A DNA stretch of 64,000 nt, taken from an uncultured Eubacteriales bacterium. Its GTDB lineage: Bacteria; Bacillota; Clostridia; Oscillospirales; Oscillospiraceae. The stretch is from the NCBI GenBank assembly GCA_900545815.1, contig URAM01000003.1, positions 64,082 to 128,081 on the forward strand, given 5' to 3'. Of the stretch, positions 1 through 19,103 are shown in pieces. Made by a program: the position numbers and the translations under genes. The first letter of the stretch is position 1; each line of letters starts with the position of its first letter. The notes beneath the pieces were generated by a model. It did not search any database and had not been told where the DNA came from. It saw nothing but the letters and a program-made list of their open reading frames with translations.

Positions 1-1
1 C

Positions 2-1297
2 ATCCTCGGCTTCCTCGTGGTGATCATTTTGGTCTATCGCGATTGGTCGGTGTACCTTTCCACCTTTGCTGGGTTATGCGTTGTTGTTTTGCTTTCTGGC
101 AGCGATTTCATGACCGCTATGACGGAAACTTATACCAAAGGCGTCTTTACCGCCATTAACAGTTTCCTCTTTATGCTCATGTTTGGCTGCGTCCAATCCT
201 CCCTCTATCGGGAGAGCGGCGCCGCCTACTCCATCGCCTCCACCATCATGCACAAGCTCATCCGAGAAGATACCAGCAACACGGCGAAGAATATCATCGC
301 ATTGAGCATCATCATGGTCATTGGCACCCTGTTGAGCATGGGCGGCATCATTGCCGGTGTTGTGATCGTCCTCATGTATCCCATCGCCCTTGCCATTTTT
401 GAGCACTGCGACATCCCCAAGCGGTTCATCCTGGGCGTCCTGGGTGCTTCTGCCTACACCTTCACCCTGACCCTTCCCGGCAGTCCAGAAGTGACCAATG
501 TGGCTGCAATGAGCGTGCTGAAGACCAGCTCCACTGTGGCTGCAATCCCTGGCATTGTGGGTGCTGTCGTAGAGGTCGTGGTGATTCTGCTGGTGATGAA
601 CGCTCTGATCAATCATGCTCGGCATAACGGAGATCATTTCCAGCGCCATCCGGAAGACCCCTATATGGACGAAACATCAGAAAAGCCCCCTTTCTTCCTC
701 TCTCTCATCCCCCTTTTCGTCCTCTTTGTCCTTTTCAACTTCTTTAATCTGCACATTGTTCTCTGCTTGATTTTCAGCTGCCTGCTGTCCATCGTCCTAT
801 TTTGGAAATGGTTAAAGCCCAAAGACGTCAAGCATATTGTCTGCCAAGCTACGGTAGACTCTATCCCCATGACCCTGAATGTAGGCGCCATCTGCGGTTT
901 TGCCGCCATCATCACAAACTCTGACGCATTCCAAACCATTCTGGATACACTGACCAGCATGGAGGCCTCCCCCATCCTCATCTGCGCTGTCGTTGTGTCC
1001 ATCATGTGTATGCTCACCGGCGGTTCCTCTACCGGTCAGCTCATCGCCCTTCCCATCATCGCCCCTCGGCTCATGGAGATGGGGCTGAGTGTGGACATCA
1101 TCCACCGTGTTTCCGTTTTCGCCGCCACCACCCTTGACTCCATGCCCTACAGCGGCTCCATCCTGATGCTGCTGCCCATGTGTCATATGAAGCTGAAAGA
1201 AATCTATCCCGCCATGTTCATCACCACCGTCCTGGCCACCACCTGCGGCACCATTGCGGTCTGCCTCATGTGCGTCTTCTTCCCCGGTTTGACCTGA
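2..1297 (+). CDS. Polytopic membrane permease, 5'-truncated at window edge (ion-transporter superfamily, GntP/DcuC/NhaC-like two-repeat topology)
   Basis: Frame is open from nt 2 to a stop at 1295-1297. Almost entirely hydrophobic helices with two similar halves separated by a charged loop. A terminator lies immediately downstream. Confidence 0.55.
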   Translation: MLGFLVVIILVYRDWSVYLSTFAGLCVVVLLSGSDFMTAMTETYTKGVFTAINSFLFMLMFGCVQSSLYRESGAAYSIASTIMHKLIREDTSNTAKNIIALSIIMVIGTLLSMGGIIAGVVIVLMYPIALAIFEHCDIPKRFILGVLGASAYTFTLTLPGSPEVTNVAAMSVLKTSSTVAAIPGIVGAVVEVVVILLVMNALINHARHNGDHFQRHPEDPYMDETSEKPPFFLSLIPLFVLFVLFNFFNLHIVLCLIFSCLLSIVLFWKWLKPKDVKHIVCQATVDSIPMTLNVGAICGFAAIITNSDAFQTILDTLTSMEASPILICAVVVSIMCMLTGGSSTGQLIALPIIAPRLMEMGLSVDIIHRVSVFAATTLDSMPYSGSILMLLPMCHMKLKEIYPAMFITTVLATTCGTIAVCLMCVFFPGLT

Positions 1298-1340
1298 CCA
1301 GGACCCCCTGTGTTCTGTCTCTGACGCAGAGACAAAAATA

Positions 1341-1384
1341 AACGGAGCCGACCTTTCTCTGCAGGTCGGCTCCGTTGCTTTTTG
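1341..1384. terminator. Rho-independent terminator (bidirectional) between permease (+) and PucR regulator (-)
   Basis: Stem AACGGAGCCGACC / GGTCGGCTCCGTT with a 10-nt loop, followed by TTGCTTTTTG. An A-tract on the other side makes it usable from both strands. Confidence 0.7.
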
Positions 1385-1389
1385 TCCTG

Positions 1390-2946
1390 TTAGTCTTGCG
1401 CGATCATTCGGTTCTTGCGATACAAGAAAATCTTGAAGGATAACTGCAGGGTGAACACCAACTTGGCGTTCTTCTCACCAGACAGGTCAATGCTGCACAG
1501 CTGCTCGATCTGCTGGATGCGGTAGTTGATGGTGTTCCGGTGAATGAACAGCATCTGCGCTGCTTGCGCCTTGTTGAATCCCGTCTCGGTATACACACGC
1601 AGCGTCTCAAACAGTTCTCCGCCCTTCTTCCGGTCATAATCCGCCAGCTGCTTCAGAGCCGGATGATAGCAGTGATCCAAAAACTCTTCCTCTTTCACCT
1701 GATCCAAAATAACATAGAGGATATAGTCCAAGTAGAAGAAGAAGTGCCCCACCGAATCAGTGCGGGTGCTGAACTCCAGCACCTTATTTGCTTGGTTGAA
1801 GTGTTCGCCAAACTCGGAGATGTCCGAGAATACATTGCTCACGCCCACCAGCAGATTCTGCTTCTCCGCCAGCTCCTGAAGCTGTGCCCACTTATCCTCT
1901 GACAATTCCCCGTTGCTCTGGGTGCTGACCAGACAGACCAAGGACGAATGCCACGGGAAGCAGGGCTGATCCACCAAAATCTCACTGACCTCCGGCATAA
2001 TGATGTAGGAATAGTAATCCATATCCTTAGAGTACGGGGTGCGAAAGACCATGGTACGCATATACTTTTGAAATTTCAGACCACTGATCTTGGCACGGAG
2101 ATTTGTCTCCGCCGGCGTGGCGCCGGCCACAGCATCCAGAAGGATGTTGGTGCGCATAATAGAGCGATAGTCATTGATCCGATCCATGTCCTTCAGCCGC
2201 AGGATGCCCTCCTTCACCCGATGGGCGAACAAAGGCAGCATCTTTCGGGTGTAGCTATCAAAGGCCGGACGACTGTTCAAGGCGAACACATAGCCCAATG
2301 AGGCGTTATTATGCCACAGCGGTTCGACCATAATATACTTATCCATCTTTTGGCAGTACAGCTCCACCACATGGCTGTTTTTCGGCACATTCAGCTGCCG
2401 CCGCTGGAGGTTGATATAGTCCATCAGCGTTTCATCGCAGTAGCCCTGATAAATGCTGTTCATCCAAACAGGCACATCCACATAGAAGGGCTCCGAGTGC
2501 TCGATGATCTTGCCAGAAACATCAATGGCCACAAATAGGTTGCCGGTGTAGGTGGTAGCATCGGTGAAGATGGTGCGCAGATCTACGCCGGAGATCAGTT
2601 TTGTCACAATATCTCCGTACTGTGCCTGCAACTCCGGCGCTTCACTCAGCTGCAGCTTCACATACCGGAACACCTCTGCCAAAGAAACGCCTTCTCGAAT
2701 TTTGGCCCAGTTGAGCAAGTTCTTTTCCCGATACTCGGGCACTTCCCCCTGATAGATCAGGCAGGCGGGGAGCTTGGTCGTCGGGCCAATCTCCTCCGCT
2801 CGGATGAAGTACACCGTTTGGTTGTACATCTGCTGGCATTCGCGATCCATCAGGTTCAGATCCGCTACCTCGCAGTCCTCCTGGATCGCCACCTCTGTCA
2901 CCATGTCCGCTTTGTTCAAAATATCCATCAGCAGCGAAAATTTCAT
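1390..2946 (-). CDS. PucR/CdaR-family transcriptional regulator (C-terminal PucR-type HTH)
   Basis: 518-aa ORF. C-terminus ...GFNKAQAAQMLFIHRNTINYRIQQIEQL... is the PucR C-terminal HTH. The GAGGAG / GAGAGG SD precedes the ATG at 2946. Confidence 0.8.
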   Translation of the reverse strand: MKFSLLMDILNKADMVTEVAIQEDCEVADLNLMDRECQQMYNQTVYFIRAEEIGPTTKLPACLIYQGEVPEYREKNLLNWAKIREGVSLAEVFRYVKLQLSEAPELQAQYGDIVTKLISGVDLRTIFTDATTYTGNLFVAIDVSGKIIEHSEPFYVDVPVWMNSIYQGYCDETLMDYINLQRRQLNVPKNSHVVELYCQKMDKYIMVEPLWHNNASLGYVFALNSRPAFDSYTRKMLPLFAHRVKEGILRLKDMDRINDYRSIMRTNILLDAVAGATPAETNLRAKISGLKFQKYMRTMVFRTPYSKDMDYYSYIIMPEVSEILVDQPCFPWHSSLVCLVSTQSNGELSEDKWAQLQELAEKQNLLVGVSNVFSDISEFGEHFNQANKVLEFSTRTDSVGHFFFYLDYILYVILDQVKEEEFLDHCYHPALKQLADYDRKKGGELFETLRVYTETGFNKAQAAQMLFIHRNTINYRIQQIEQLCSIDLSGEKNAKLVFTLQLSFKIFLYRKNRMIAQD

Positions 2947-3405
2947 AGACCTCTCAGCTCCTCACAGTTCCGCGGTAATCCGCCTATGGTAAAGATTGCT
3001 TTTTCTTTGTTTGCCATAATTTTAGCATATTGTTAATATTGTAACATTTTAATTTCTCTGTCAATATCCGTTCTCTCATAATTATTTTTTCTATTTTGTG
3101 CATCCTGCACAAGCAATTTACAAAGGCACTCCAAATCATGACAGTTTTTAAAATATATATGAAATATCGCCCTTTTTCTCCGTTTCTTCGGAAAAATTGC
3201 TTTGTTTTGATTGAGAAAGTTTCCATTTCTTTTATACCTCTTTTTGCTGGAATTCCCATCCTTTTGCTCCATTGGTCGTATGGCACAAAAAGCGCCGCTT
3301 TTCCGGCACCGGCTAAAAAACACTTGACTTAACGTGGACTTTCCGTTATACCATAAGCAAAACCATCCATCCCCAGCCCCACGCTGGCGCAAGGAAAGGA
3401 GTCCT
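2947..3405. promoter_or_regulatory. AT-rich intergenic island (divergent promoter region for PucR regulator and esterase)
   Basis: ~0.45 kb with markedly lower GC than the flanking DNA, runs of A/T and many TATA-like hexamers. Only short Lys-rich spurious ORFs are present. Confidence 0.4.
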
Positions 3406-4443
3406 GTGAAAGCCGCTATGAAGAACCGAACCCGTACCCTCTATCTGACCTTCCTCGTTGTGCTGGTGCTGACCGTCGTGGCCGCCGTCCTCTGGCATCC
3501 CGCTGGACTGGCCGCTTCCACGCCACCCTCCTCCAGTCTGACCGAACCGGCCGCCTCTGTCTCCCAGCCCGACCCAGCGCCCCAACCCTCCAAGGCTCTA
3601 CGACAGGAGATCCAGCGGTACGCCCAAGCGGCCAACGCCGACGGCATCGTAACCGAGACGCCTGACCCCTATTTCATCGAAAAGCAGTCCGGCTACGACT
3701 ACCGAGCGCCGGAGACCATCTCCTATTTCTCCAGTCTGACGCATACCACCCGCCACGCCATGATTTTCCTGCCGGCGGACTACTCGGATGAAAAGACCTA
3801 CCCTGTGCTCTACCTGCTCCACGGCTACGGCGGAAGCCACCGCACCTGGCGGAACAAATCGGCTGACATCCTCCTCCAGAACCTGCACTACTTCGAAAAC
3901 GTGCCGGAGATGATCGTGGTCTGCCCCAACAGCAACGTGAACCAGGCGGAGAGCGTAGAGGGGCTGACCTTCTGGGAGAGCGTAGAACCCTTTGACCGGA
4001 CGCCGGACGAGGTAGTAGACTGCCTGATGCCCTATATCAACCGGCACTATCCGGTCAAGACCGGCCCTGAAAACACCGCCGTGGCGGGCAACTCTATGGG
4101 CGGCCGCAATGCCCTGGCGCTGGCCTACCGCCATCCGGAGCTGTTCGGTTATGTGGGCGCTTTCTCCTCCTCTGTTGCCGTGGCAGCCGCCAACGGCAAC
4201 ACCATGTCCACGCCGCTGCAAGACCTGTCTCTGCCGGACGGCGCACCGCCCTTCCAGCTGCTGTTTTTGGCGGTGGGGCGGTCGGACAACGTGTGCGGCA
4301 GCGTGACCTATGAGCTGGACAACTATATGACCCGACAAGGCATCAAACATCTATTCTACGACACCACCGGTGGCCATCAGAATGTGGTGTGGCAGAACGC
4401 CCTGTATAACTTCGGCAAAAAGCTGTTCCGGTCTAAATCGTGA
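3406..4443 (+). CDS. Membrane-anchored/secreted esterase of the putative-esterase (esterase D / CE1 feruloyl-esterase-like) alpha/beta-hydrolase family
   Basis: GTG start 5 nt after AAGGAG. N-terminal basic segment + TM helix, then a Pro/Ser-rich linker. Conserved motifs LLHGYGGSH and the nucleophile elbow GNSMGG. Confidence 0.75.
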   Translation: MKAAMKNRTRTLYLTFLVVLVLTVVAAVLWHPAGLAASTPPSSSLTEPAASVSQPDPAPQPSKALRQEIQRYAQAANADGIVTETPDPYFIEKQSGYDYRAPETISYFSSLTHTTRHAMIFLPADYSDEKTYPVLYLLHGYGGSHRTWRNKSADILLQNLHYFENVPEMIVVCPNSNVNQAESVEGLTFWESVEPFDRTPDEVVDCLMPYINRHYPVKTGPENTAVAGNSMGGRNALALAYRHPELFGYVGAFSSSVAVAAANGNTMSTPLQDLSLPDGAPPFQLLFLAVGRSDNVCGSVTYELDNYMTRQGIKHLFYDTTGGHQNVVWQNALYNFGKKLFRSKS

Positions 4444-4457
4444 CACTTGACCGCAGC

Positions 4458-4491
4458 AAAATCCCCTCACAAGAACTGTGAGGGGATTTTT
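4458..4491. terminator. Bidirectional rho-independent terminator between esterase (+) and OYE reductase (-)
   Basis: Stem AAATCCCCTCACA / TGTGAGGGGATTT, then TTTTT. A-tract on the opposite side. Confidence 0.75.
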
Positions 4492-4499
4492 GCGACACT

Positions 4500-6443
4500 T
4501 TACAGCTGGCTGGCAGCCAGGAAACCGCTTTCCACTGCATAAGCGATGTTCCCATACTGGACACAAGTGCCAATGGTGTGACAGTTGGGGAAGGCTGCGA
4601 ACTGCTGGGCAACATCCTGGTTAGGACGCATCCCCATCGCCAAGATGACGGCATCGCAGGGCGCCGTTTTCCGAGTCCCGTCCTCGGTTTCAAAGATACA
4701 GCTGTCCGGAGCGATCTCCACCAGCTTGTGGCTGGTGGACTGAGGCACATCTCCCAGGCGGTGCTCAATGTCGATGATGTTCTGAAAATGCTCTCCGTGC
4801 GCCACCTCCGGCAGCAGGTCGTAGACGGAAACCCGATTTCCCTTGCTTTTCAAATACTCTGCCGTCTCTAGGCCAGTCATACCGGCGCCGATGACCACCA
4901 CCGTCTGTCCCTCCAAGGTGACCTTGTCGGTAAGCAAGTCGGAGGCGGTGTACACCTGACTGCCGTGGATACCGGGGATACGGCTGGGGATCAGAGGGGA
5001 CGCACCAGCGGCCACCAGAACGGCATAGGGGTGCAGCTCCGCCACTGCTTCCGGCGCAGCCGCCTGTCCCAGACGAACGGTGACGCCCAGTTTGTCCAAC
5101 TGATGGGTCAGGTAGCGGACGAAAGCCAGAATCTTCTCCTTGTGGGGCGGTTTCGCCGCCTGGAGGAGGGCGCCGCCCAGCCGGTCATTCTGCTCCCACA
5201 GGGTGACCTGGAACCCCCGCAGAGCCAGCACCCGTGCCGCCTCCATGCCAGCGGGGCCGCCGCCAATGACAGCCACAGGACGCCCGTCCCCGTCCTGACG
5301 CAAGGTGCTGCGGGTACACTCGAAGGCCCCCTGGGCATTGACTGCGCAGTGCATTTCGCCGCAGGCCATGGTTTTCATACAGTTCAGGCAGGAGATACAG
5401 GGGCGGATGTCCTCATCCCGACCTTCCAGCGCTTTGTTCGTCCACTCCGGATCAGCCAGGTGGGCACGGGCGGAGCCAACGAAGTCACAGACGCCGTCCT
5501 TCAGCAGTCCTTCGGCGTAGTCCGGTTCCCGAATCATCGCAGTGCAGACCACAGGGATGTCCACCACCTGCTTCAGCTCGTGGGCCAGCTCCACCTTCCA
5601 GCCCTGGTCAAAGCCGGTGGGCTCCCAGGCGGTGTTCATGGTCTCATAGATGCCGGAACTGACGTCCAACAGGTCTGCTCCGGCGTCCTGGAACAGTTTG
5701 GCGTACTCCTTGGACAGTTCCAGGGTGATGCCAGCTTCACGAGGCAGGCCGATATAGTCCAGATATTCACAGGCAGAGATACGGATGGCAATGGGGAATT
5801 CCGGCCCGCAGGCATCCCGAATGCCGTGGATGATCTCCAGAGCGAAGCGGGCGCGATTGGCCACGGAGCCGCCATAGTAGTCGGTGCGGTGGTTGGTGTA
5901 GGGGCTCAAAAACTGGTTGATGAGGTAGCCGTGGGCGGCGTGGATGAGCACCCCATCCACGCCGGCTTTCTGACAGCGGATGGCGCCATTGATGAACTTC
6001 TGCACCATGCAGGCGATCTCCTCGGTAGTCATGGCAATGACCGGTTGGCGGGTCAGGCCGCACTGGATGGCGCTGGGGGCAAACATCCGGCGTCCGCCGT
6101 TGAGGGCACTGTCCCCCTGGCGGCCAGGGTGGTACAGCTCCACAAAGAAGGCACAGCCGTAGGGGTGCAGGACATCCATGAGCTGGCAGTAGCCAGGGAT
6201 AAGCTTATCATCGTCAATGCACAGGTTTCTGGGGTTGGCACGGCCGGAGTTGGAGGATACCGAGACGGCTTCGCTCATGATGAGTCCTGCGCCGCCTTTG
6301 GCACGGGCTTCATAGAAGGCGATGTCCTCTGCGCTCATGGAGCCATCCAGATTGGACAGGGCATTGCCCATGGCTTCCATGATGACACGGTTCTTCACAG
6401 TGAGGGCGCCGATTTTACCAGGGGAACTGAGGTATGGTCTCAT
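4500..6443 (-). CDS. Two-domain flavoenzyme: N-terminal Old-Yellow-Enzyme TIM barrel (NADH:flavin oxidoreductase) fused to C-terminal FAD/NAD(P)-binding pyridine-nucleotide-disulfide-oxidoreductase domain (2,4-dienoyl-CoA-reductase / enoate-reductase architecture)
   Basis: Start reassigned to the ATG at 6441-6443 (MRPYLSSPGKIGALTVKNRVIM...), preceded by AAAAGGAG. The upstream 92 codons of the longer ORF are Pro/Ala/Gly-rich and have no SD. OYE motifs are present (HAAHGYLINQFLSP...TNHRTD). C-terminal VAVIGGGPAGMEAA Rossmann motif. Confidence 0.8.
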   Translation of the reverse strand: MRPYLSSPGKIGALTVKNRVIMEAMGNALSNLDGSMSAEDIAFYEARAKGGAGLIMSEAVSVSSNSGRANPRNLCIDDDKLIPGYCQLMDVLHPYGCAFFVELYHPGRQGDSALNGGRRMFAPSAIQCGLTRQPVIAMTTEEIACMVQKFINGAIRCQKAGVDGVLIHAAHGYLINQFLSPYTNHRTDYYGGSVANRARFALEIIHGIRDACGPEFPIAIRISACEYLDYIGLPREAGITLELSKEYAKLFQDAGADLLDVSSGIYETMNTAWEPTGFDQGWKVELAHELKQVVDIPVVCTAMIREPDYAEGLLKDGVCDFVGSARAHLADPEWTNKALEGRDEDIRPCISCLNCMKTMACGEMHCAVNAQGAFECTRSTLRQDGDGRPVAVIGGGPAGMEAARVLALRGFQVTLWEQNDRLGGALLQAAKPPHKEKILAFVRYLTHQLDKLGVTVRLGQAAAPEAVAELHPYAVLVAAGASPLIPSRIPGIHGSQVYTASDLLTDKVTLEGQTVVVIGAGMTGLETAEYLKSKGNRVSVYDLLPEVAHGEHFQNIIDIEHRLGDVPQSTSHKLVEIAPDSCIFETEDGTRKTAPCDAVILAMGMRPNQDVAQQFAAFPNCHTIGTCVQYGNIAYAVESGFLAASQL

Positions 6444-6463
6444 AAGGGAGTGCTCCTTTTCAT

Positions 6464-7330
6464 TCAGATTTTGGCTTCCAGGCCAGCTGGAAGGATGCGG
6501 TGGGGCCAGTGCTGCTCCTGCGCCCACTGGGCGGCATAGGAATCCGGCTCCACCAGCAGAAGCGGCTGCTGGCCGCCGGATGGGCCGAAGGGCATCTGGC
6601 CAAGGGACTGGACAGCCGCTGGGATGCGCAGGGTCTTTAGACCGGTACAGCCCCAGAAGGCCATAGAACCGATGCGTTCCACGGTCTCCGGCAGAGTCAG
6701 GTCGGTCAGAGAACTGCAATTACACAGGGCGCTGTCCTGGACCACCTCCAGCCGGTCGGGCAGGCGGAGGTGGCAGAGGGATCTACAGTCGTAGAGGGTC
6801 AGGAGGGACAGGGTACGCAGGCCATGGGGCAAGGTAAGGGATTCCAGGTGGACGCAGCCGCTGAAGGCCGCTTCACCGATCTGGGTGACGCCGTCTGGAA
6901 CGTCCATGGACCGAAGGAAATGGCAATTGGTAAAGGCGTCGCTCTCGATGCGGCGCAGGGTCTGAGGCAAGGTGACTTGCTCCAAATGGATGCATTTGCA
7001 GAAGGCCATCCGACCGATCCCCTCCACCCCCTCTGGCAAATTCACTTGCCGGAGGGTCTTCTTGTGGTAGAAGCCCCCCTTCCCCAACTGGGTCACCGGC
7101 TTCCCGTCCAGTTGGGCAGGCACGTCCACCTGGGTGTCCTCCCCTCGATAGGCGGTGAGGGTGACGCCTTCCGGAGTGGTCTCGTAATCCCACTGAGCGT
7201 TTCGGTGCTGTTGGAGGAGGGCTTGGAGGGTTTCTTTGGTATAAGTGACGCCGCAGAGGGTACACTGGATTTGACCGGATGCTTCCACGGTCAGGGTACC
7301 GCCGCAGACTTGACAGGTGAGAACAGACAT
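6464..7330 (-). CDS. Cytoplasmic leucine-rich-repeat (BspA-type LRR) protein with N-terminal CxxC...CxxC zinc-ribbon
   Basis: N-terminus MSVLTCQVCGGTLTV...QCTLCG, then about nine ~23-aa repeats of the form LxxIGxxAFxxCxxLxxLxLP. No signal peptide. Start either ATG 7330 or 7390. Confidence 0.65.
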   Translation of the reverse strand: MSVLTCQVCGGTLTVEASGQIQCTLCGVTYTKETLQALLQQHRNAQWDYETTPEGVTLTAYRGEDTQVDVPAQLDGKPVTQLGKGGFYHKKTLRQVNLPEGVEGIGRMAFCKCIHLEQVTLPQTLRRIESDAFTNCHFLRSMDVPDGVTQIGEAAFSGCVHLESLTLPHGLRTLSLLTLYDCRSLCHLRLPDRLEVVQDSALCNCSSLTDLTLPETVERIGSMAFWGCTGLKTLRIPAAVQSLGQMPFGPSGGQQPLLLVEPDSYAAQWAQEQHWPHRILPAGLEAKI

Positions 7331-7725
7331 GGGAAAACAGCTCCAATCAATGTTTTTTTCGACACAGAAATGTTGTGCTCCGACTTTCATTTTACTGCAT
7401 CCGCCAGCCGTTGTCGTGGTCGTTTCTTTTCAAAATAACCGGTATAACTGAAAAGAACGGACAAAAATCCACTGGTGAATGGCTACGGTCGGCAGCAGGA
7501 AAAGTGCAAAAAAATGTGGCAAAATTGCGATAAAATCCGGATAGAAGCTGTGTTTTTTATGGAATTTCTCACGATGACAACAGGCGGTCTAAGTGCTATG
7601 ATATTACTCACAAAGCCCCGTGGGATTCAACAGGCACCCTCCCTTACTCTTTCCGCCTGCCCGCTATGGTGCGCTTTGTTCCTCTTTGATTTGAAGTATT
7701 AGACCCCAAACTGAAAATAACAGAG

Positions 7726-7770
7726 GAAAAAACACCTTCCCGTTCTTAATCTGCGGGAAGGTGTTTTTCT
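7726..7770. terminator. Rho-independent terminator (both strands) of an orphan unit
   Basis: A-tract, stem ACACCTTCCCG / CGGGAAGGTGT, then TTTTT. Confidence 0.65.
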
Positions 7771-7785
7771 ATGCTCCCAGCACGC

Positions 7786-7825
7786 AAAAACACGGCAGCG
7801 TTTTCCAGACACTGCCGTGTTTTTG
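7786..7825 (-). terminator. Rho-independent terminator downstream of the second PucR regulator
   Basis: Stem ACACGGCAG / CTGCCGTGT flanked by an A-tract and a T-tract, ~25 nt after the stop of the minus-strand gene ending at 7849. Confidence 0.7.
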
Positions 7826-7848
7826 CATTCATGGGTATTACTCAGGCT

Positions 7849-9450
7849 TTACTCGTGTTCTTTCTCCTCTTCCTCCCCATCGGCGGCTTTGCCGGCGTTT
7901 TCATAGGCCATCAGGTTCATGATCTTCTCCGACAGCATGACCCAGAAGCAATCCCTGCTGTCCTCTCCCGTAAAGCCGGTCAAAGACTCGATGCGATTGA
8001 TGCGGTTTTTCAGGGTGTTGTAGTGGAGATACATGGTCTTGGCAGTGTTGGGGATGGAGCAGTGGTTTTTAGTGTAGACAAAGAGGGTGTTGAGCAGATC
8101 GGCGCTGGAGGGTGCGGCCTGGAGCTTCTTCACAGCCGGATGGAGCAGATCCCACAGGTTCACCTCTTTGCCCAGGGACAGGATCATATGGTACTCAAAG
8201 ATGTCCCGATAGCAGAGGATCTGCTGCTGCTCGTGCTCCTTGGAGATGGTGCGGAACTCGGTGCAGAACAAGGTCTGCTGGTAATAATTGCGCACCTGGT
8301 ACAGCTCGTGGAAATGAGTGGAGATGTTGGCGGTGCAGTTGAGCTTTTCCAGGACGGAGGAGAGCTGGCTGAGCCACTTCTCGTCTTGGGTGATGTTCTC
8401 CTCATTGGAGTCATAGAGCACCAAAAAACAGCCGTTAACCCAGATGACCAGATTGTTATGGAAGTAGGAACGGATACGCTGCAAGGTGAAGGAGATAATA
8501 TCGTTGGTGGTCTGGGAACCGATGAAGTTGATGCCGATGACGTAGAGGTATTTGTAGAATTTCAGGTTGTATAGCTCCTGACGGGAGAGGATCTCATATT
8601 TGTTGGTGAACTTCCCCTCCAGCAGCGAGTGCAGAAAGTCCTCCGTCAAAGAGACCACATCTGGGATGCGTCCCCGAGTGCTGCTGCGGACGAAGGGGAC
8701 ATAGTGGCTGAAGAGCTGGAACACCTGCAAGTCAAAATTGCTGACTGGATGGTTGGCCTCCAACAGTTTCAGGTAGCCCAGGACGATGTTGTTCTGATTG
8801 ACCCGCGTGGAATACTGCTTCACAGAGGTGACCTCGTTGGGCAGCTCCACCCGAATGTCTCCTAAAATCAAGTGATCCTCATCGGCAAAGGCGGAGCGGT
8901 TCATGATATAGCCGATGTACTTAGAGGAGAACATCTGGTTGTCCAGGGCGTAGCGCCAGGCATCCTCATTCCGGAGGACAGAGGTGCCGGCGTGGGCAAT
9001 GAGGTTAAAGGAGATGTCCACCAACATGAGGGGGTTGTTGAGGATGCTGTAGGCGTACTCCATGAGCTTGTGGATGTCCCCGCCGCCGTGGATGATGGAG
9101 ATGAGGGTGCGGGAGATATTGTCCAGCTTGGATTCTTCGGAGAGCAGTCCGGAGATCTGTTCGATGAGGGTAACGTATGCAGCTACAGAATGCACTACCA
9201 TCAGGTTCCCCTGCGCCGCCAGCGTATCCGGCGGCACCTCCTGTTCCGTGCAGAGCAGGAAATTTCCCTGGGGCGGGAGGGTCTGTTCCGTCAGATCTGG
9301 CGCTTTACTAATATAAAGGTAGTCTGGGCTGTAGGCGGTGTCCAGCTCACGGAGCTGTTTCAGACCGATGATCTTGGCTGTGGGACGCCGGCAGAGGATC
9401 TGTGCATCGGACGGCAGCAGATCCAGGATGCGTTCAACAGATATTTCCAT
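7849..9450 (-). CDS. PucR/CdaR-family transcriptional regulator, divergent from the ADH/ALDH operon
   Basis: Start at the ATG 9448-9450 (MEISVERILDLL...), preceded by GGAGGAA. C-terminal PucR HTH (...KTMYLHYNTLKNRINRIESLTGF...). Confidence 0.8.
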   Translation of the reverse strand: MEISVERILDLLPSDAQILCRRPTAKIIGLKQLRELDTAYSPDYLYISKAPDLTEQTLPPQGNFLLCTEQEVPPDTLAAQGNLMVVHSVAAYVTLIEQISGLLSEESKLDNISRTLISIIHGGGDIHKLMEYAYSILNNPLMLVDISFNLIAHAGTSVLRNEDAWRYALDNQMFSSKYIGYIMNRSAFADEDHLILGDIRVELPNEVTSVKQYSTRVNQNNIVLGYLKLLEANHPVSNFDLQVFQLFSHYVPFVRSSTRGRIPDVVSLTEDFLHSLLEGKFTNKYEILSRQELYNLKFYKYLYVIGINFIGSQTTNDIISFTLQRIRSYFHNNLVIWVNGCFLVLYDSNEENITQDEKWLSQLSSVLEKLNCTANISTHFHELYQVRNYYQQTLFCTEFRTISKEHEQQQILCYRDIFEYHMILSLGKEVNLWDLLHPAVKKLQAAPSSADLLNTLFVYTKNHCSIPNTAKTMYLHYNTLKNRINRIESLTGFTGEDSRDCFWVMLSEKIMNLMAYENAGKAADGEEEEKEHE

Positions 9451-9842
9451 AGGTTCCTCCTTTTCATGTATCGCTCGGAACAATTTGTCAGGTTTACAAA
9501 ATGTAACTTTGTGCAAACATTCCATTCTCTAACATATCGGTATTATCCCCAAATGACGTTGCTTTTAGAGTACCCTAATTCGGCGAAAAAAACAATCCTT
9601 AAAAAGGAAAACTCAAATTTCCACCACGGTTCCATGAAAAATTTCAACAAAATACTCCAATTCTGTTAGCATATTTTTTCAACTTCACGCTGAAAAAACC
9701 CGGTTTCATTCATCGGAACAAACAGAAGAATTGACGTTTCAGAAAGGCTTTTTGTGCATTATACTAAAGCCAGTGAGTGAATGAACGTGTCTGCGCAGGC
9801 AGAAGAACCTGTATATGAAAATTTTTGAGGAGGTTTTTCGGA

Positions 9843-11024
9843 ATGAATCGAGCCTATGAAAAGCTCTGCAACTACACACAGCAGTGCCCCGTCACCTTCG
9901 GCGTTGGCAGTATCGCCACCGTCAAGGACGCAATGGGTATGCTGGGCGCAAAGAAACTGTTCGTGGTCTACGACCAGGGCGTGAAGATGTCCGGTCTGGC
10001 CGAGAAGGTCACCAAGTCCCTGGATGAACAGGGCGTAGACTATATCACTTATGATGACATCACCGCTGAACCCGTGGAAGACGTGGTGGACAAGGCTTAC
10101 GAAGTGGCCAAGGAAGCCGGCTGTGACGGCGTTCTGGGTCTGGGCGGCGGCTCCCCCATGGATACTGCCAAAATCATCTCCGTCCTGCTGAAAAAGGGCG
10201 GCAAGACCAGCGATTATTTCCTGAGTAAGCTGGGCCCCATCTTCCACGATCATGTTCCCTCTCTGATGGTTCCCACCTCCAGCGGCACCGGCTCCGAAGT
10301 CACCTGCGTTGCGGTAGTCTCCGACATCAACCATGCCAAGGACGGCGTTCTGGCTGGCCCCTCCATGGCCATCGTTGACCCTGAGATGACCCTCACCTGC
10401 CCCCCGCTGAACACCGTCACCAGCGCACTGGACGCCTTCGCCCATGCTGCCGAAGCCTTCACCGCAGCAGATGTGGACCCCGTCAGCGACCAGTTGGCTC
10501 TGGAAGCCATCCGCTTGATCATGGCCAACCTGGACAAGGTCTATCACAACGGCGCTGACATCGAAGCTCGCACCCGTATGTCCATGGCCGCCAACATGGC
10601 TGGCATCGCCTTCAGCAACACCGGCGTCTCCTTCGGCCACGCTGCCGGTCACGAATTCGGCACCAAGTTCCACATCGGCCACGGCCTGGCTTGCTGCTAC
10701 AGCGTGCCCGTCACTCTGAAGTGGAACGCCATCAACAACACCGAACGCGCCAGAAAGATTGCCGAAGCCATGGGCATCGAAGGCTTTGACACCCTGGCTC
10801 CCGAAGAACTGGGCAAGGTCATGGCCGACATCATCGTGAAGATGATGAAGGACTACAAGGTTCCCACTATGGCAGAAAAGGGCGCCACCAGACAGGCTTG
10901 CATCGACCTGGCGGAGGACTCCATCGCCCACAACCAGATGCAGTATGCCGATGTGGTGCGTCCCATCCCCATCGAAGAATACCGCGAAATGCTGGCTGAG
11001 ATGTACGACCTGTCTGTTCAGTAA
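9843..11024 (+). CDS. Iron-containing (group III) alcohol dehydrogenase
   Basis: Start MNRAYEKL after GAGGAGG. Fe-ADH motifs GLGGGSPMDTAKI and the His-rich metal site (AHAAEAF...GHAAGHEFGTKFHIGHG). Confidence 0.85.
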   Translation: MNRAYEKLCNYTQQCPVTFGVGSIATVKDAMGMLGAKKLFVVYDQGVKMSGLAEKVTKSLDEQGVDYITYDDITAEPVEDVVDKAYEVAKEAGCDGVLGLGGGSPMDTAKIISVLLKKGGKTSDYFLSKLGPIFHDHVPSLMVPTSSGTGSEVTCVAVVSDINHAKDGVLAGPSMAIVDPEMTLTCPPLNTVTSALDAFAHAAEAFTAADVDPVSDQLALEAIRLIMANLDKVYHNGADIEARTRMSMAANMAGIAFSNTGVSFGHAAGHEFGTKFHIGHGLACCYSVPVTLKWNAINNTERARKIAEAMGIEGFDTLAPEELGKVMADIIVKMMKDYKVPTMAEKGATRQACIDLAEDSIAHNQMQYADVVRPIPIEEYREMLAEMYDLSVQ

Positions 11025-11120
11025 TCTCCGCTCCAACGCTCCCATTTTAATCAAGCAAACGTGAAAGAAACAGAATAACCAACATCTAATTTTAGCTATT
11101 TCCCATAGGAGGAACCTATT

Positions 11121-12467
11121 ATGTATAAAGAAATGCACGGTGTATTTGAAGTGATCGAAGACGCAATCGACGCAGCATACGAAGCACAGCGTATCCTGGA
11201 AGCCAACTACACCACTGAAGACCGTCAGAAGTTCATCGACGCTGTCAAGGCAGAAGCGCTGAAGGTGGTCAACGAAGAAACCATCAAGGAATTTGAAGAA
11301 ACCGGCTACGGCCGTCTGGATCAGAAGCTGGTCAAGAACTATGGCTCCATCGCAGAAAACCCCGGCGTAGAATCCCTGAAGCATGAAGTCCTGGCCTCCG
11401 GCAAGGGCGTCACCATCGACTTCGCCGCTCCCTACGGCACCGTTGGCGCTCTGACTCCTGTCACCAACGGTCTGGTCACCGTGGTCTGCAACACCCTGAG
11501 TATGCTGGCCGCTGGCAACACCATCGTTTTCAACGCCCATCCCGCTGGCAAGGAATCCGCTTGCAAGGCTTGCGACCTGGTCAACCGTGCCATCGTCGAA
11601 GCAGGCGGCCCCGACAACGTCTGCACCATGATCGCTGATCCTACTTATGAAACTCTGGATGTCATCATGGCTTCCGACAAGATCAAGATGCTCATCGGCA
11701 CCGGCGGCGAAGGCATGGTGGCCAAGCTCATGAGCTCCAACAAGAAGGTCATCGCAGCCGGCCCGGGCAACCCTCCTGCCGTCATTGATGAGACTGCCAA
11801 CGTCAAGCAGGCCGCCCAGGTTCTGTACGAAATGGTTCCCTTTGAAAACAATATGCTCTGCATCACCGAGAAGGAAGCCTTCGTTGTGGAGAGCGTCTAT
11901 GACGAATTCGTGGAAGCCATGAAGGAATGCGGCGCTCGCGTCCTGACCGAGGAAGAAGCACAGAAGGTCATTGACCTGTGCATCGCGCCCAACGCAGAAG
12001 GCAAGCTGATGCCCAACAAGAAGTTCGTCGGCAAGAACGCCAATGTCATCCTGAAGGCCGCCGGCCTGGAAGTGGACGAGAGCGTGGATCTGCAGCTGGC
12101 TGTCATCCTGACCGACAGTGTGGATCATCCCTATGTTATGTGCGAACAGCTCATGCCCATCTTCCCCATCTGCAAGGTCAAGGATTGGGACGCAGCTATG
12201 GCCGCAGCCATCAAGGCAGAAGCGGGCTGCCACCACTCCGCCTGCGTCTGGACTGCTTCTCTGGAACGGGCTACCGCTCTGGGCAAGGCACTGGGCTGCA
12301 CCTGCTTCGCCATGAACGGCCCCACCGTTGGCGGCACCGGCATGATGGGCACCGGCTACGGCTCCCCCACCATCGCTGTCTCCACCGGCGAAGGCTTCAC
12401 CACCCCCAACACCTTCACCAGATTCCGCCGCTTCGCTATGTGCCAGGGCGCTGCCTACATGGGCTAA
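11121..12467 (+). CDS. CoA-acylating aldehyde dehydrogenase of the PduP/EutE family
   Basis: Blocks typical of PduP/EutE: GALTPVTNG...VCNTLSMLAAGN, GTGGEGMV, IAAGPGNPPAVIDETANVKQAA, FENNMLCITEKE (catalytic Cys). AGGAGGAA SD. Confidence 0.85.
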   Translation: MYKEMHGVFEVIEDAIDAAYEAQRILEANYTTEDRQKFIDAVKAEALKVVNEETIKEFEETGYGRLDQKLVKNYGSIAENPGVESLKHEVLASGKGVTIDFAAPYGTVGALTPVTNGLVTVVCNTLSMLAAGNTIVFNAHPAGKESACKACDLVNRAIVEAGGPDNVCTMIADPTYETLDVIMASDKIKMLIGTGGEGMVAKLMSSNKKVIAAGPGNPPAVIDETANVKQAAQVLYEMVPFENNMLCITEKEAFVVESVYDEFVEAMKECGARVLTEEEAQKVIDLCIAPNAEGKLMPNKKFVGKNANVILKAAGLEVDESVDLQLAVILTDSVDHPYVMCEQLMPIFPICKVKDWDAAMAAAIKAEAGCHHSACVWTASLERATALGKALGCTCFAMNGPTVGGTGMMGTGYGSPTIAVSTGEGFTTPNTFTRFRRFAMCQGAAYMG

Positions 12468-12650
12468 GGATAGCGAGCATCCCCTTTTTGCACACAACCA
12501 CTGTCTAATTTGTCCCTTATGAGGCAGTGACATCCGTCCCCGGGTACCACTGGATTACGGGAATCCGCCAAGATCCATGCGTATCCGGGGACAAGCTGTC
12601 AGAGAGAAGGCTCGTTGCTGTCTCTGAAAAGTCAAAAGAGGAGGTTCTTT

Positions 12651-13895
12651 ATGGAAATCAAAAAACTGAACTACGGTTGGGGTGTCAAACTGGCCGTCCT
12701 GCTCATCATCTGTGTGCAGTACACTGTCACCATCACCTCCCCCATCCTGGGCACCATCATGGAAGCGTTCCCGGAACACGCCAGCATGGTCAAGCTGCTG
12801 GAGACTATCCCCACCTTTGCAGCCGTGATCATCTCCATCCTGCTGGGACCGCTGATGAAGGTCTTTTATAAGAAGCAGCTGCTGCTGTTCGGCATCGCCC
12901 TGTCCTTCTTCCAGTTCATCCCCGCCATCGTCCCCGGCTTCTGGCCCCTGTTCATCTGCCGTACAGTCGCCGGCTTCGGCATCGGCTTCATGTACTCCTT
13001 CGCCGCTTCCTTCGCCGTCGATATGTTCGACGAAAAGGGCGCTGCGGATATGCTGGGTCTGAGAAGCACCCTGGGCGCTGTCATGGGCATCGTCTATCAG
13101 CAGCTGTCCGCCCGCTTCGCCGTGGCCTCCGGCAGCTATCAGCGCTCCTTCATGGTCGCTCTGATTCTGGTTCCCATCTTCCTGTACATCCTGTTCATGA
13201 TGCCCAAGAGCTGCCCAGTGGAGGACTACAATCGGGAACAGGCAAAGCTGCCCCATGAAGAAAAGGCCAAGGAAAAGATCTACTACCCCCTGACCATCGC
13301 TCTGCTGGCCGTCCAGTTCCTGACCCTGCTGTTCTCCTACGCATTCATGACCAACGTCTCCATCGTCACCAGCACCGCTGTGGAAGCTGGCGGCATGGGC
13401 ATGACCGCGGCCACCGCAGCAAACGTGCTGTCCGTCTTTACCGTGGCCATCGCCGTGGGCGGCCTGCTCTACGCCAGAGTGTGGTGCCGTATCTTCAAGA
13501 ACTTCACCACCGGCGCCGGCATCCTGTTCCTCTGCGTAGGCATGATCATCAACTTCACTGCCGCCAAAAGCTGTAGCCTGCCCCTGCTGATGGTGGGTAC
13601 TGTGCTGTATGGTTTCGGCTTCGAAATGAACAACTCTCACCTCTGCCAGCTCCTCCCCCTGACCTCCGTCCCCTCCGCTGCCGCTTCCCTGCTGGGCGTC
13701 ATGTACGCCTGCATCAACCTGGGCAGCTTCGCCGCCGGCTTTATCACTCCTGTCATCTCCAAGGCCATCTTCGGCGAAGGCATCCTGGCTGACTGGAACC
13801 TGTGCATCTTCGGTCTGGCCATCAGCACCGTCCTGATGCTCGTCTGCTGCGGCGCGGTCAACAAGCAGGTCAAAGCAAAATCCACTCAGCAGTAA
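12651..13895 (+). CDS. MFS transporter
   Basis: Start MEIKKLNYGW after GAGGAGG. 12 predicted TM helices with the typical MFS loop pattern. Confidence 0.75.
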   Translation: MEIKKLNYGWGVKLAVLLIICVQYTVTITSPILGTIMEAFPEHASMVKLLETIPTFAAVIISILLGPLMKVFYKKQLLLFGIALSFFQFIPAIVPGFWPLFICRTVAGFGIGFMYSFAASFAVDMFDEKGAADMLGLRSTLGAVMGIVYQQLSARFAVASGSYQRSFMVALILVPIFLYILFMMPKSCPVEDYNREQAKLPHEEKAKEKIYYPLTIALLAVQFLTLLFSYAFMTNVSIVTSTAVEAGGMGMTAATAANVLSVFTVAIAVGGLLYARVWCRIFKNFTTGAGILFLCVGMIINFTAAKSCSLPLLMVGTVLYGFGFEMNNSHLCQLLPLTSVPSAAASLLGVMYACINLGSFAAGFITPVISKAIFGEGILADWNLCIFGLAISTVLMLVCCGAVNKQVKAKSTQQ

Positions 13896-14083
13896 GTCTG
13901 CCACACAACGAAACACAACTGAATGGATGTGCCGTACAGAAGTGGGCCACAATGCCTGAAGTGACCTCTGTACGGAAGCGGACAGGATTCCCCCTGTCCC
14001 AAGGGAAAACCGGAGAGGGCAACCTCTCCGGTTTTTCCCCCACCTTATCATCCTCTACTCCGATACGAGAAGGAACAAAACCT

Positions 14084-15382
14084 ATGAAAGAACAAGTACG
14101 CTCCTCTCAATTCCAGACGACTCGGAGCAATTTCGGCGCCTGGGGCTGGTTCACCATCCTCTTCGCATTCTTCTCCTTCATGTTCGCCGGCAACCTGATC
14201 GTAGACGGCATGAACATCACCGTCTCCGCCTTCGCCCAGCTGCGTGGCTGGCAGAGCGGGGTACTGCTGAGTTACTCCACCGTGGCAGGGCTGATCTCCA
14301 TCGTTGGCTGCGTTGTCCTCAGCAACAGTGTGTGCAGATACGGGGTCAAGATCGTTTACTGCATCAGTCTGGCCATTGTGGCTCTGTGCTGTATGGTCTG
14401 GGGTGCAGTGACCCAGCTGTGGCAGTACGTCCTCATCCTCATCCTGGTCAATATCTTCGGCAACGGCTTCGGTTTCGTGGGCGGCACCGCCATTCTCTCC
14501 AACTGGTTTCCTCGGAAAAAGGGTCTGGCCATGGGCTGGGCCACCATCGGCTTCCAAGCCTCTCCCGTCCTCATGCTCCCCACCTTCTCCTGGGTCATGC
14601 ATCGGTTCAACCTGCGCATCGCCTATCAGACGGTGGGTGCGTGCCTGCTGGTCATGCTACTGGTGTGCATCTTCTTGGTCAAGAGTGATCCGGAAGAGCA
14701 TGGCTGTGCGCCGGACAACGACTGGACCCACACCTTGGAGGAATTCAAGGCGCTGCATGAAAAGGCAGTGGCATACGAAAAGAGCCACCACCTGACCACC
14801 GCCCAGCTGCTCAAGACCAAGCAGATGTGGCAGATCGGGGTGGTCAACGGACTGCTACAGATGGCCATCACCGTCCTCATCGTCCAGTTCATCCCCAATA
14901 TGATCGCCTGCGGCTTCTCCGCCTCTACCTCCACCGCCATCTATTCTGTCGCTTCTATCCTGGGCGGTGTGGGCAGCTACCTGTGGGGATTGCTGGATCA
15001 GAAGGTGGGTGTGAAAAAGGCCACCGTTTGGATGTGCCTCATGCACGCCATCGCCGGCGCCGCCTTCGCCGTGGCTGCGGGACATCTGATCGAGGGGCCG
15101 GCGGTGCCCCTGTTCGGCGCCTTTATCGTTGGCTCCATCCTAGGCGTCTCCTCCAACTACGTTGGCTCCTTCACCGCCACCGTCTTTGGCCGCTACGGCT
15201 ACGCCCGTGCCTTCGGGCTGGTCTACATGGTGGTCTGCGCCCTGCGCTCTGCCGGTTATGCCCTCATCGGTGTGATCCAGACCGCCACCGGCAGTTACAC
15301 ACTCTCTTACTGGATCGCAGGCATCCTGAGTCTGCTGGCGCTGGCGCTGACCTTCCGCATTGATGACCGCTGCATCGGCTGA
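14084..15382 (+). CDS. MFS transporter (oxalate/formate-antiporter-like OFA-type features)
   Basis: Start MKEQVRSSQF after GAGAAGGAA. The upstream part of the long ORF overlaps the previous gene and is non-hydrophobic. Motif ...LSNWFPRKKGLAMGW... and 12 TM segments. Confidence 0.7.
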   Translation: MKEQVRSSQFQTTRSNFGAWGWFTILFAFFSFMFAGNLIVDGMNITVSAFAQLRGWQSGVLLSYSTVAGLISIVGCVVLSNSVCRYGVKIVYCISLAIVALCCMVWGAVTQLWQYVLILILVNIFGNGFGFVGGTAILSNWFPRKKGLAMGWATIGFQASPVLMLPTFSWVMHRFNLRIAYQTVGACLLVMLLVCIFLVKSDPEEHGCAPDNDWTHTLEEFKALHEKAVAYEKSHHLTTAQLLKTKQMWQIGVVNGLLQMAITVLIVQFIPNMIACGFSASTSTAIYSVASILGGVGSYLWGLLDQKVGVKKATVWMCLMHAIAGAAFAVAAGHLIEGPAVPLFGAFIVGSILGVSSNYVGSFTATVFGRYGYARAFGLVYMVVCALRSAGYALIGVIQTATGSYTLSYWIAGILSLLALALTFRIDDRCIG

Positions 15383-15404
15383 CCACAGGGAAAGGAGAAC
15401 GACC

Positions 15405-17442: not shown

Positions 17443-17445
17443 TGG

Positions 17446-17485
17446 AAACAGGCGTTCGATTGTTTATCGAACGCCTGTTTTGTGT
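17446..17485 (+). terminator. Rho-independent terminator after the VWA gene
   Basis: Stem AAACAGGCGTTCGAT / ATCGAACGCCTGTTT with loop TGTTT, then TTTGTGTATTTT. Confidence 0.8.
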
Positions 17486-19035: not shown

Positions 19036-19103
19036 TCGCATCCCTCTCTGGTGAATTGGATTGTTTTATCTTTTCCATTTTCACCCGCCTATCATTCATG
19101 GGG

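Follow-up and report, generated by a model that had tools for sequence, protein, structure and literature searches.

Separately regulated gene modules around a putative feruloyl-type esterase in an uncultured gut Oscillospiraceae bacterium, and their doubtful standing as a chlorogenate utilization system

Gene content and transcription units of the locus

The DNA considered here is a stretch of 64,000 nucleotides (the window; assembly GCA_900545815.1, contig URAM01000003.1, positions 64,082 to 128,081) from an uncultured Oscillospiraceae bacterium, in which a GntP-like permease, a PucR-family regulator (PucR1), a CE1-type esterase and an OYE-type Fe-S flavoenzyme (OYE1) lie some 17 kb from a shikimate-type operon with a second such flavoenzyme (OYE2). 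A sequence-only reading had proposed that the first four genes form an island which, together with the second locus, serves the use of chlorogenate (hydroxycinnamoyl-quinate). The genes that it named (permease, PucR, CE1 esterase, OYE1, and the shikimate-type locus) were all recovered by profile searches at the coordinates it had given, and the right boundary of its island, position 6443, is exactly the start codon of OYE1.

The window is chromosomal DNA (57.5% GC) and carries the dcw/ftsZ cluster, spoIIGA, and glmS. The host FtsZ sequence is present on 693 contigs, with displayed sample and contig names largely those of human-gut metagenomes; the host is an uncultured, prevalent human-gut Oscillospiraceae. 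An Rfam scan of the window returned no riboswitch or other RNA family. GC content was considered as a sign of foreign origin (permease and PucR1 52–53%, esterase and OYE1 61%) and set aside as uninformative, because the second PucR-family regulator (PucR2) also has 54% GC.

The four island genes alternate in orientation (+ - + -). The permease (2-1297, +; open at the 5' edge of the window) faces PucR1 (1390-2946, -; HTH_30, E 1.6e-16, and GGDEF_2) across a spacer (1298-1389) that folds at -44.9 kcal/mol (z -7.4) and holds a bidirectional terminator-like hairpin (1341-1376) with a 14-bp stem and T-runs on both strands. PucR1 and the esterase (3406/3418-4443, +; a ferulic-acid-esterase-like alpha/beta hydrolase, PF00756, E 3e-22) diverge from a shared AT-rich spacer of 459 bp (2947-3405; 39.5% GC) with promoter-like hexamers. 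The esterase and OYE1 (4500-6443, -; 647 aa; Oxidored_FMN and Pyr_redox_2, Cys cluster between the domains) converge on a gap of 56 bp, in which a second bidirectional terminator-like hairpin (4461-4487; 11 bp, GC-rich) folds at -27.4 and -28.5 kcal/mol on the two strands (z -6.7 and -6.6). Because of the alternating orientations and the strong hairpins between both convergent pairs, the esterase and OYE1 are not co-transcribed, and the island does not hold up as one unit. The permease is a transcription unit of its own; OYE1 is the terminal gene of a unit with a BspA-type leucine-rich-repeat (LRR) protein (6464-7390, -; LRR_5, E 2.8e-55), whose gene ends 20 bp upstream on the same strand; PucR1 is probably the regulator of the divergent esterase. 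Three modules, here called A, B, and C, have three different regulators: PucR1, PucR2, and a LysR-type protein.

The esterase and the permease

Module A (2-4443) groups the esterase with PucR1 and, less tightly, with the permease; of these genes only that for the esterase is conserved. The permease is 437 aa long on full contigs (L001/L113), with its first ~5 residues beyond the window edge. Its match to GntP is weak (37 bits to Pfam GntP_permease, 32 bits to TIGR00791), and it is a putative stand-alone anion permease, distantly of the GntP/ion-transporter type.

The esterase gene can start at a GTG (3406; 345 aa), which has a Shine-Dalgarno-like AAAGGAG upstream, or at an ATG (3418; 341 aa). 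The N-terminus MKNRTRTLYLTFLVVLVLTVVAAVLW is followed by a Pro/Ser-rich stretch; in the AlphaFold model (AF2, mean pLDDT 88.3) a helix (2-25) and a disordered linker (27-50) precede a compact alpha/beta domain, and an N-terminal hydrophobic segment is present in all 26 aligned homologues. The protein is accordingly predicted as exported or membrane-anchored, and in either case extracytoplasmic. The nucleophile elbow is GNSMGG (GxSxG type), and the triad Ser226/Asp290/His320 is invariant in the 26 homologues.

The best PDB sequence matches are the feruloyl esterases (FAEs) AmCE1/Fae1A (5cxu, E 2.7e-31) and the XynZ esterase domain (1jjf, E 1.8e-30); Foldseek with the esterase model likewise places 5cxu first (TM 0.85 to target, E 1.2e-22), with 1jt2 and 1jjf also among the top matches. 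Across the classes of PF00756, E-values run from 1e-31 to 1e-12 for FAEs, to 1e-10 for enterochelin esterase, 5e-07 for S-formylglutathione hydrolase, and 0.008 for antigen 85; by sequence and by fold, a Bacteroides acetyl-xylan esterase (6ne9) also matches well. Acetyl-xylan, feruloyl, and cinnamoyl esterases all belong to CE1 and are not separable by sequence alone (PMC8040265); a feruloyl-type enzyme is the best reading of sequence and model. The esterase had been described earlier as FAE-like and extracytoplasmic, and the sequence matches, the fold matches, and the N-terminal helix all agree with this. Among the ORFs scanned across 1-30 kb of the window, no glycoside hydrolase and no carbohydrate-binding module (CBM) was found.

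Relatives of the esterase in genome contigs are mostly distant CE1 proteins of Bacteroidota and Planctomycetota, with two relatives above 50% identity among the matches listed. At 80 genome loci with esterase relatives (28–66% identity, among the matches listed), none had an OYE, permease, PucR, or shikimate-dehydrogenase (SDH) homologue within 10 kb. The Bacteroidota relatives are tandem CE1 genes; a homologue with 68% identity is set among PadR, DUF3887, and SdpI genes, next to genes of fatty-acid synthesis, with no reductase, permease, PucR, or SDH neighbour; Pfam searches of the esterase neighbours in Mogibacterium kristiansenii (L033) and Lachnospiraceae 48-33 (L034) gave nothing relevant.

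As a working model, the surface or secreted esterase of module A would release hydroxycinnamic acids from dietary esters, for example feruloylated arabinoxylan fragments and possibly chlorogenates, and the permease may import the acid product.

OYE1 and its partner genes

In OYE1 as in OYE2, a single polypeptide combines three parts: an OYE FMN barrel (HxxHGY motif), a Cys cluster, and a Pyr_redox_2 (FAD/NAD(P)H) domain. The Cys cluster of OYE1 is CISCLNC...C, of the CxxCxxC...C type (CISCLNCMKTMACGEMHC); that of OYE2 is CIGCLLGCx11C, the FadH-like CxxCxxxCx11C. The two share 36% identity and are distant members of one superfamily, not recent paralogues, so that the earlier term "paralogous reductase" applies at the level of the superfamily and no closer. 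Identity to the predicted enoate reductase of C. kluyveri (P0044), a reference protein that is itself predicted only, is 48% for OYE1 and 32% for OYE2, which puts OYE1 apparently nearer the clostridial enoate-reductase clade; its earlier assignment to the enoate-reductase type is in keeping with this value and with the two-domain architecture. Both proteins score below every NCBIfam equivalog cut-off, including those of BaiCD (OYE1 425 and OYE2 475 bits; cut-off 825) and of the long-form bilirubin reductase (421 and 468 bits; cut-off 750). The regulators adjoining the reductases belong to the PucR family (OYE1) and the LysR family (OYE2), and neither reductase has a MerR neighbour of the kind reported for bona fide fldZ genes, which encode the characterised cinnamate reductase FldZ (bioRxiv 10.1101/2025.11.25.690607).

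Upstream of the LRR-OYE1 unit, PucR2 (7849-9525, -; HTH_30, E 8.8e-15) is divergent from an operon (9825-19035, +) for an Fe-type alcohol dehydrogenase (Fe-ADH), a CoA-acylating aldehyde dehydrogenase (AldDH) of the EutE/PduP type, two carboxylate-type MFS carriers, a MoxR-like AAA ATPase, a VWA protein, and a family-III CoA-transferase. With 466 bits, the AldDH clears the threshold set for the EutE-type acylating subfamily (403 bits). The nearest family of the Fe-ADH is the GbsB-type choline dehydrogenase, and the CoA-transferase is nearest to succinate-glutarate and formyl-CoA transferases, in each case with scores far below cut-off; the MFS proteins resemble monocarboxylate and oxalate:formate-type carriers. 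A MatE gene follows (19056-20678, +, the ORF as listed; most conspecific gene calls give 463 aa).

Orthologues of OYE1 (65–86% identity) in three other lineages all keep PucR2, and two of them (L006, L010) also keep the LRR gene, Fe-ADH, AldDH, and MFS; none has the esterase. In L006/L007 (OYE1 86%) the order is AAA-MFS-MFS-AldDH-FeADH-PucR2-LRR-OYE1, followed by a TraG/HSP70 cassette. In L010/L011 (OYE1 65%; a metagenome-assembled genome labelled Christensenellaceae) it is CoAT-LRR-OYE1-MFS-MFS-AldDH-FeADH-PucR, the one place where the CoA-transferase was seen with an OYE1 orthologue; identities to the window in L010 are 85% for the CoA-transferase, 41% for LRR, 83% for AldDH, 72% for Fe-ADH, and 48% for PucR. 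L008/L009 (OYE1-like, 69%) have PucR-OYE1-like-MFS-VWA-4HBT thioesterase. Across L006 and L010 the AldDH is 83–95% and the Fe-ADH 72–82% identical to the partners of OYE1 in the window, and an LRR homologue lies directly upstream of the OYE1 orthologue in both (70% and 41%).

Two further features of module B were observed. The LRR protein has an N-terminal CxxC...CxxC (Cys4) zinc-ribbon-like motif and no signal peptide; it is a puzzling companion for an Fe-S flavoenzyme, yet a conserved one. The MoxR-like AAA ATPase (weak MadB-family match) and the VWA/CoxE-like protein lie together inside the partner operon (15360-17442), and a VWA gene also stands beside the 69% OYE1 homologue in L008; the two may be a cofactor-insertion or maturation pair.

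To the left of the permease, beyond the window edge (L113-L117; L208 1-5914), lie a crotonase, an acylating AldDH of 468 aa, a family-III CoA-transferase, an Fe-ADH, and a lactate/oxalate-type MFS. This left-flank module is a distant paralogue, its proteins being 26–29% identical to their counterparts in the window; since it directly adjoins the permease, CoA-dependent acid-handling modules flank the esterase on both sides. The left-flank crotonase was considered as a hydroxycinnamoyl-CoA hydratase-lyase and rejected, its similarity being that of a generic enoyl-CoA hydratase.

To judge by the predicted families, module B has the appearance of a route by which an unsaturated acid, aldehyde, or alcohol is processed in the form of its CoA thioester. 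It would import an unsaturated carboxylate (or its aldehyde or alcohol), handle it partly as a CoA thioester, and reduce the C=C bond; a hydroxycinnamate is one candidate substrate.

The LysR-controlled shikimate-type operon

Module C begins with a LysR-type regulator (20850-21731, -), divergent from an operon on the + strand that encodes an SDH-like protein (SDH1; 21951-22817), an MFS carrier (22851-24077), a shikimate kinase (24081-24596), a xylose-isomerase-like, Lmo2234-like TIM barrel (24621-25466), a second, YdiB-type SDH-like protein (SDH2; 25523-26398), and OYE2 (26455-28383), whose FadH-like Cys motif is given above. SDH2 is closest to the SDH of L. monocytogenes (3tnl, E 4e-82), then to E. 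coli YdiB (1npd, 9.6e-75), and reaches 441 bits (cut-off 432) with NF009200, which fits a YdiB/QsuD-type NAD-dependent quinate/shikimate dehydrogenase. The TIM protein is closest to Lmo2234 (2g0w, E 3e-94), for which the PDB entry name gives no function; its match to QuiC, a 3-dehydroshikimate dehydratase, is weak and partial (E 4e-13; 49 bits, where the cut-off is 1200). No ORF of this second locus matches a dehydroquinase family (AroD/AroQ/QuiB/QsuC). The locus has the second reductase and the quinate/shikimate-type enzymes that had been ascribed to it, the latter with YdiB-type dehydrogenases, and lacks the dehydroquinase of a classical qui/qsu-type operon.

The homologue search with OYE2 returned mostly sequences of 89–90% identity, and a metagenome scan gave 80 loci (61–100% identity), of which the 59 with at least 3 kb upstream were used for neighbourhood counts. 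Of these loci, 54/59 have SDH2 and 53/59 the TIM protein; LysR (upstream of the operon), SDH1, and MFS accompany OYE2 in the majority, and the esterase in 0/59. The shikimate kinase occurs in all 18 loci at 85% OYE2 identity or above and in 2 of the 41 below. The operon recurs in many lineages of gut Clostridia; TIM-SDH2-OYE2 is its conserved core, and the shikimate kinase is variable. Since OYE2 is a core member, its substrate is more likely a quinate or shikimate derivative (an enone or enoate) than caffeate.

A route can be proposed in which a YdiB-type dehydrogenase would oxidise quinate or shikimate to a 3-keto compound, the TIM-barrel enzyme would perform a beta-elimination of water, OYE2 would ene-reduce the resulting enone or enoate, and the second dehydrogenase would re-reduce the ketone; overall, the route would serve as a reductive (dehydroxylating) electron sink, its logic akin to that of bile-acid 7-dehydroxylation. 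Such a reductive pathway is plausible because the gut anaerobes Eggerthella lenta and Sutterella wadsworthensis reduce the shikimate enoate to hydroshikimate as an electron sink (bioRxiv 10.1101/2022.12.26.521950) and because of the gene context of E. coli ydiB. The shikimate kinase may divert shikimate to aromatic amino-acid synthesis. In the literature searched, no OYE-type enzyme in a shikimate operon and no dihydroshikimate-forming Fe-S flavoenzyme was described, and a paper on Fe-S flavoenzyme clusters (PMC7371122) has no mention of shikimate, esterase, or CoA-transferase. The TIM-SDH-OYE2 operon, not found described in that literature, is the most promising lead of this analysis.

Two side observations concern the right-hand side of module C. 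In strains with a recQ-positive or B-type layout (L008 8231-15504; L132), a further OYE1-like gene (69%) lies ~5 kb downstream of OYE2, accompanied by PucR, MFS, VWA, and 4HBT thioesterase genes, and with this extra module Fe-S flavoenzyme modules cluster repeatedly around the shikimate operon. Most conspecific contigs (L018-L025) have a gene for a 617-aa RecQ helicase between OYE2 and ftsZ; the window has a recQ deletion allele, a gap of ~430 bp (28384-28813), as in L021 and L023, where the gap encodes a 43-aa HRDC-domain remnant.

Strain types

Contigs are grouped here by arrangement into A-type, in all of which PucR1 is kept beside the esterase, B-type, and C-type. In B-type contigs, which come from conspecific strains, the order is TraG/HSP70 cassette, esterase (86%), an ORF of 103 aa, a LysR fragment, an aldo-keto reductase, MatE, LysR, and the shikimate operon. 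DNA homology to the window around the esterase covers 3317-4427 only, that is, the esterase gene and ~90 bp upstream, with different DNA on both flanks; PucR1, the permease, and the OYE1 module are absent within 10 kb in these strains. The B-type esterase lies ~5 kb from the shikimate operon, whose proteins are mostly 97–99% identical to those of the window (shikimate kinase, 86%). In the C-type arrangement (L006/L007) the whole OYE1 module is followed directly by the TraG/HSP70 cassette, without the esterase. The site is rearrangement-prone and lies just upstream of the dcw/ftsZ cluster.

The cassette itself is ~10 kb long (L006 12060-21942; L123-L127 1-9838) and occupies the position of permease-PucR1 in B-type contigs and that of the esterase side in L006. 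Besides two HSP70-like genes it encodes an HTH regulator, a homologue of TraG/TrwB-like coupling proteins, and several uncharacterised ORFs; it resembles a mobile or defence-type element and seems to mark a hot spot of recombination. When the window (2-9086) is compared with L208/L209, the segment from the permease to the LRR gene has 89% DNA identity and the flank 98%; among the proteins, the esterase is the most diverged (87%), OYE1 has 96%, and Fe-ADH and AldDH have 100%. The divergent permease-to-LRR allele suggests recombination or diversifying selection on a surface enzyme. Split genes were seen on conspecific contigs for the permease (L116), PucR1 (L120), LRR (L117 and L119), OYE1 (L209), and the MFS of the shikimate operon (B-type contigs L123-L126), and may be real pseudogenes or assembly indel errors.

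Interpretation

We lean, with no great margin of confidence, towards reading the first 28 kb as three autonomous, separately regulated modules that stand side by side, and not as a dedicated, co-inherited chlorogenate system. The boundaries of the transcription units separate the esterase from OYE1, and each module is conserved on its own: outside the species, loci with OYE1 or OYE2 orthologues lack the esterase, and loci with esterase relatives have no reductase or SDH gene within 10 kb, so that the orthologue co-occurrence proposed as a check of the sequence-only reading did not come out in its favour.

Several points weigh against three independent modules. The A-type order was identical in 10/10 contigs examined (ECH-AldDH-CoAT-FeADH-MFS, permease, PucR1, esterase, OYE1-LRR, PucR2, FeADH-AldDH-MFS), and the variant A-type strain (L208/L209), with its 87% esterase, retains it; the juxtaposition, being fixed and kept in the variant, is stable and not an accident of assembly, and could reflect selection for co-function. 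In both strain types of this one species the esterase keeps a distance of 5–17 kb from the shikimate operon, which is weak evidence, because the proximity may be plain synteny beside the dcw/ftsZ backbone. Linkage was scored within 10 kb, and the genome counts for esterase relatives apply among the matches listed, so that closer relatives, including the species' own representative, may lie outside them. The substrates and reaction steps of all three modules are predictions, and the shikimate kinase is out of place in a pathway that is purely reductive.

The proposed chlorogenate system, in which the surface esterase would yield caffeate and quinate, OYE1 and/or OYE2 would reduce the caffeate after its import, and the MFS and the shikimate-type operon would take the quinate, is improbable to us. 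Its chemistry is reasonable, and in the window as in all A-type contigs a stretch of 28 kb encodes the three functions: the esterase is FAE-like and extracytoplasmic, OYE1 has the architecture of FldZ (bioRxiv 10.1101/2025.11.25.690607) and 48% identity to a clostridial predicted enoate reductase, YdiB-type dehydrogenases with a transporter stand 17 kb away, and the esterase is near the shikimate operon in both strain types. In Acinetobacter baylyi ADP1 the chlorogenate esterase gene hcaG is linked to hca and qui genes. Against this, the three parts are not co-inherited or co-conserved outside the species, in B-type strains PucR1, the permease, and OYE1 are all missing from the vicinity of the esterase, and three unrelated regulators are involved; OYE1 is embedded in a CoA-thioester/aldehyde/alcohol module that would be superfluous for a simple caffeate reductase, OYE2 belongs to the core of the shikimate operon, and the quinate locus has no dehydroquinase. 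We give the same poor chances to the fuller version, in which LysR/SDH1-MFS-(SK)-TIM-SDH2-OYE2 (SK, shikimate kinase) would reductively dehydroxylate quinate or shikimate, fed by a chlorogenate-splitting esterase, with the OYE1 module reducing the hydroxycinnamate, as a means for prevalent uncultured gut Clostridia to use coffee polyphenols. That the three modules act in series on chlorogenate in this species could be so; it is chemically plausible and rests on a species-specific juxtaposition.

A somewhat better, still unlikely, case can be made for a hydroxycinnamate electron sink that has the shikimate operon as a mere neighbour and no quinate link: the esterase would free ferulate, p-coumarate, or caffeate, the permease or MFS would import them, the CoA-transferase would activate them, and OYE1 would reduce the CoA ester or the free acid. 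The adjacency of esterase and OYE1 is stable in A-type strains across an allelic divergence of 87–96%, and a family-III CoA-transferase with an Fe-S flavoenzyme and an MFS resembles the logic of the bai operon (BaiF, BaiCD/BaiH, BaiG). Further cinnamate reducers are also to be expected in the gut, because phenylpropionate levels exceed what the cinnamate-reductase genes known so far, rare as they are in gut metagenomes, could account for (bioRxiv 10.1101/2025.11.25.690607). Yet three other lineages have the OYE1 module and lack the esterase, with the reverse seen in B-type strains; it is hard to see what the Fe-ADH and acylating AldDH would contribute to reducing a hydroxycinnamate; and the two genes in question are convergent, with a terminator-like hairpin between them. 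The least probable of the explanations weighed here, and one to which we give very little credence, makes the esterase an acetyl-xylan or general carboxyl-esterase, or another surface hydrolase, whose adjacency to OYE1 has no functional meaning. The inseparability of the CE1 classes by sequence alone (PMC8040265), the good match to 6ne9, and the unrelated contexts of the closest homologues in other genera would allow it. However, FAEs account for all of the top five fold matches and of the best sequence matches, two of them solved with ferulate bound; the alignment with AmCE1/Fae1A spans almost the whole catalytic domain, with short gaps only, before the nucleophile; and the ORFs scanned across 1-30 kb lack the glycoside hydrolases or CBMs to be expected of a xylan user.

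Poorly characterised gut Clostridia and plasma quinic-acid derivatives both show a strong association with coffee intake, for which no mechanism is known (PMC11602726), and the chlorogenate reading, if true, would name genes for breaking down both halves of chlorogenic acid in a prevalent uncultured gut Oscillospiraceae. With three separate modules as the preferred reading, the useful result is a negative one for the proposed system: the esterase, OYE1, and OYE2 sit in three independently inherited modules, and their juxtaposition should therefore not be annotated as a pathway. A by-product is the conserved operon of TIM barrel, YdiB-type dehydrogenase, and Fe-S flavoenzyme, which offers a testable candidate route for reducing quinate/shikimate anaerobically.

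Comparison with known systems

The esterase and OYE1 each add a new member to a known family. With the CE1 FAEs AmCE1/Fae1A of Anaeromyces mucronatus (5cxu/5cxx) and XynZ of Clostridium thermocellum (1jjf/1jt2), the esterase has the fold, the Ser-Asp-His triad, and the GxSxG elbow in common, and it aligns with them over the full domain (TM 0.81–0.85 to target; structural-alignment identity ~28%). It differs in that a membrane helix and a Pro/Ser linker stand where those enzymes have dockerin, CBM, or xylanase modules, and in its setting, an uncultured Oscillospiraceae with no xylan-degrading genes nearby. OYE1 has the same three-part architecture as FldZ and the clostridial 2-enoate reductases (PF00724 and PF07992), and its CxxCxxC...C motif recurs in the predicted C. 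kluyveri enzyme, but the neighbours of OYE1 are PucR, LRR, Fe-ADH, AldDH, and CoA-transferase, whereas the hallmark neighbour of fldZ is MerR.

The reaction proposed for OYE2 is of the same class as that of the E. lenta and S. wadsworthensis enzymes; those are respiratory-like flavin reductases, not reported in a dehydrogenase/TIM-barrel operon (bioRxiv 10.1101/2022.12.26.521950), whereas OYE2 is by its sequence a cytoplasmic OYE-type Fe-S flavoenzyme. The E. coli cluster ydiN-ydiB-aroD-ydiF-ydiO and module C both have a YdiB-type dehydrogenase beside an MFS carrier and a flavoenzyme. The E. coli cluster has in addition a CoA-transferase, the AroD dehydroquinase, and an acyl-CoA dehydrogenase/ETF system, of which YdiO can act as an enoyl-CoA reductase; the window has instead the Lmo2234-like TIM barrel, the OYE-type Fe-S flavoenzyme, a second dehydrogenase, and, in some lineages, the shikimate kinase.

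The bai operon comprises the Fe-S flavoenzymes BaiCD and BaiH, the family-III CoA-transferase BaiF, the MFS carrier BaiG, the dehydrogenase BaiA, and the dehydratase BaiE. OYE1 and OYE2 both reach high scores with the BaiCD model, though far short of its cut-off. No homologues of BaiB, BaiE, or BaiI are present here, and the dehydrogenases are of the shikimate-dehydrogenase family, not SDR; module B nevertheless shares with bai the combination of Fe-S flavoenzyme, family-III CoA-transferase, and MFS, and module C that of dehydrogenase, dehydratase-like TIM barrel, and Fe-S flavoenzyme.

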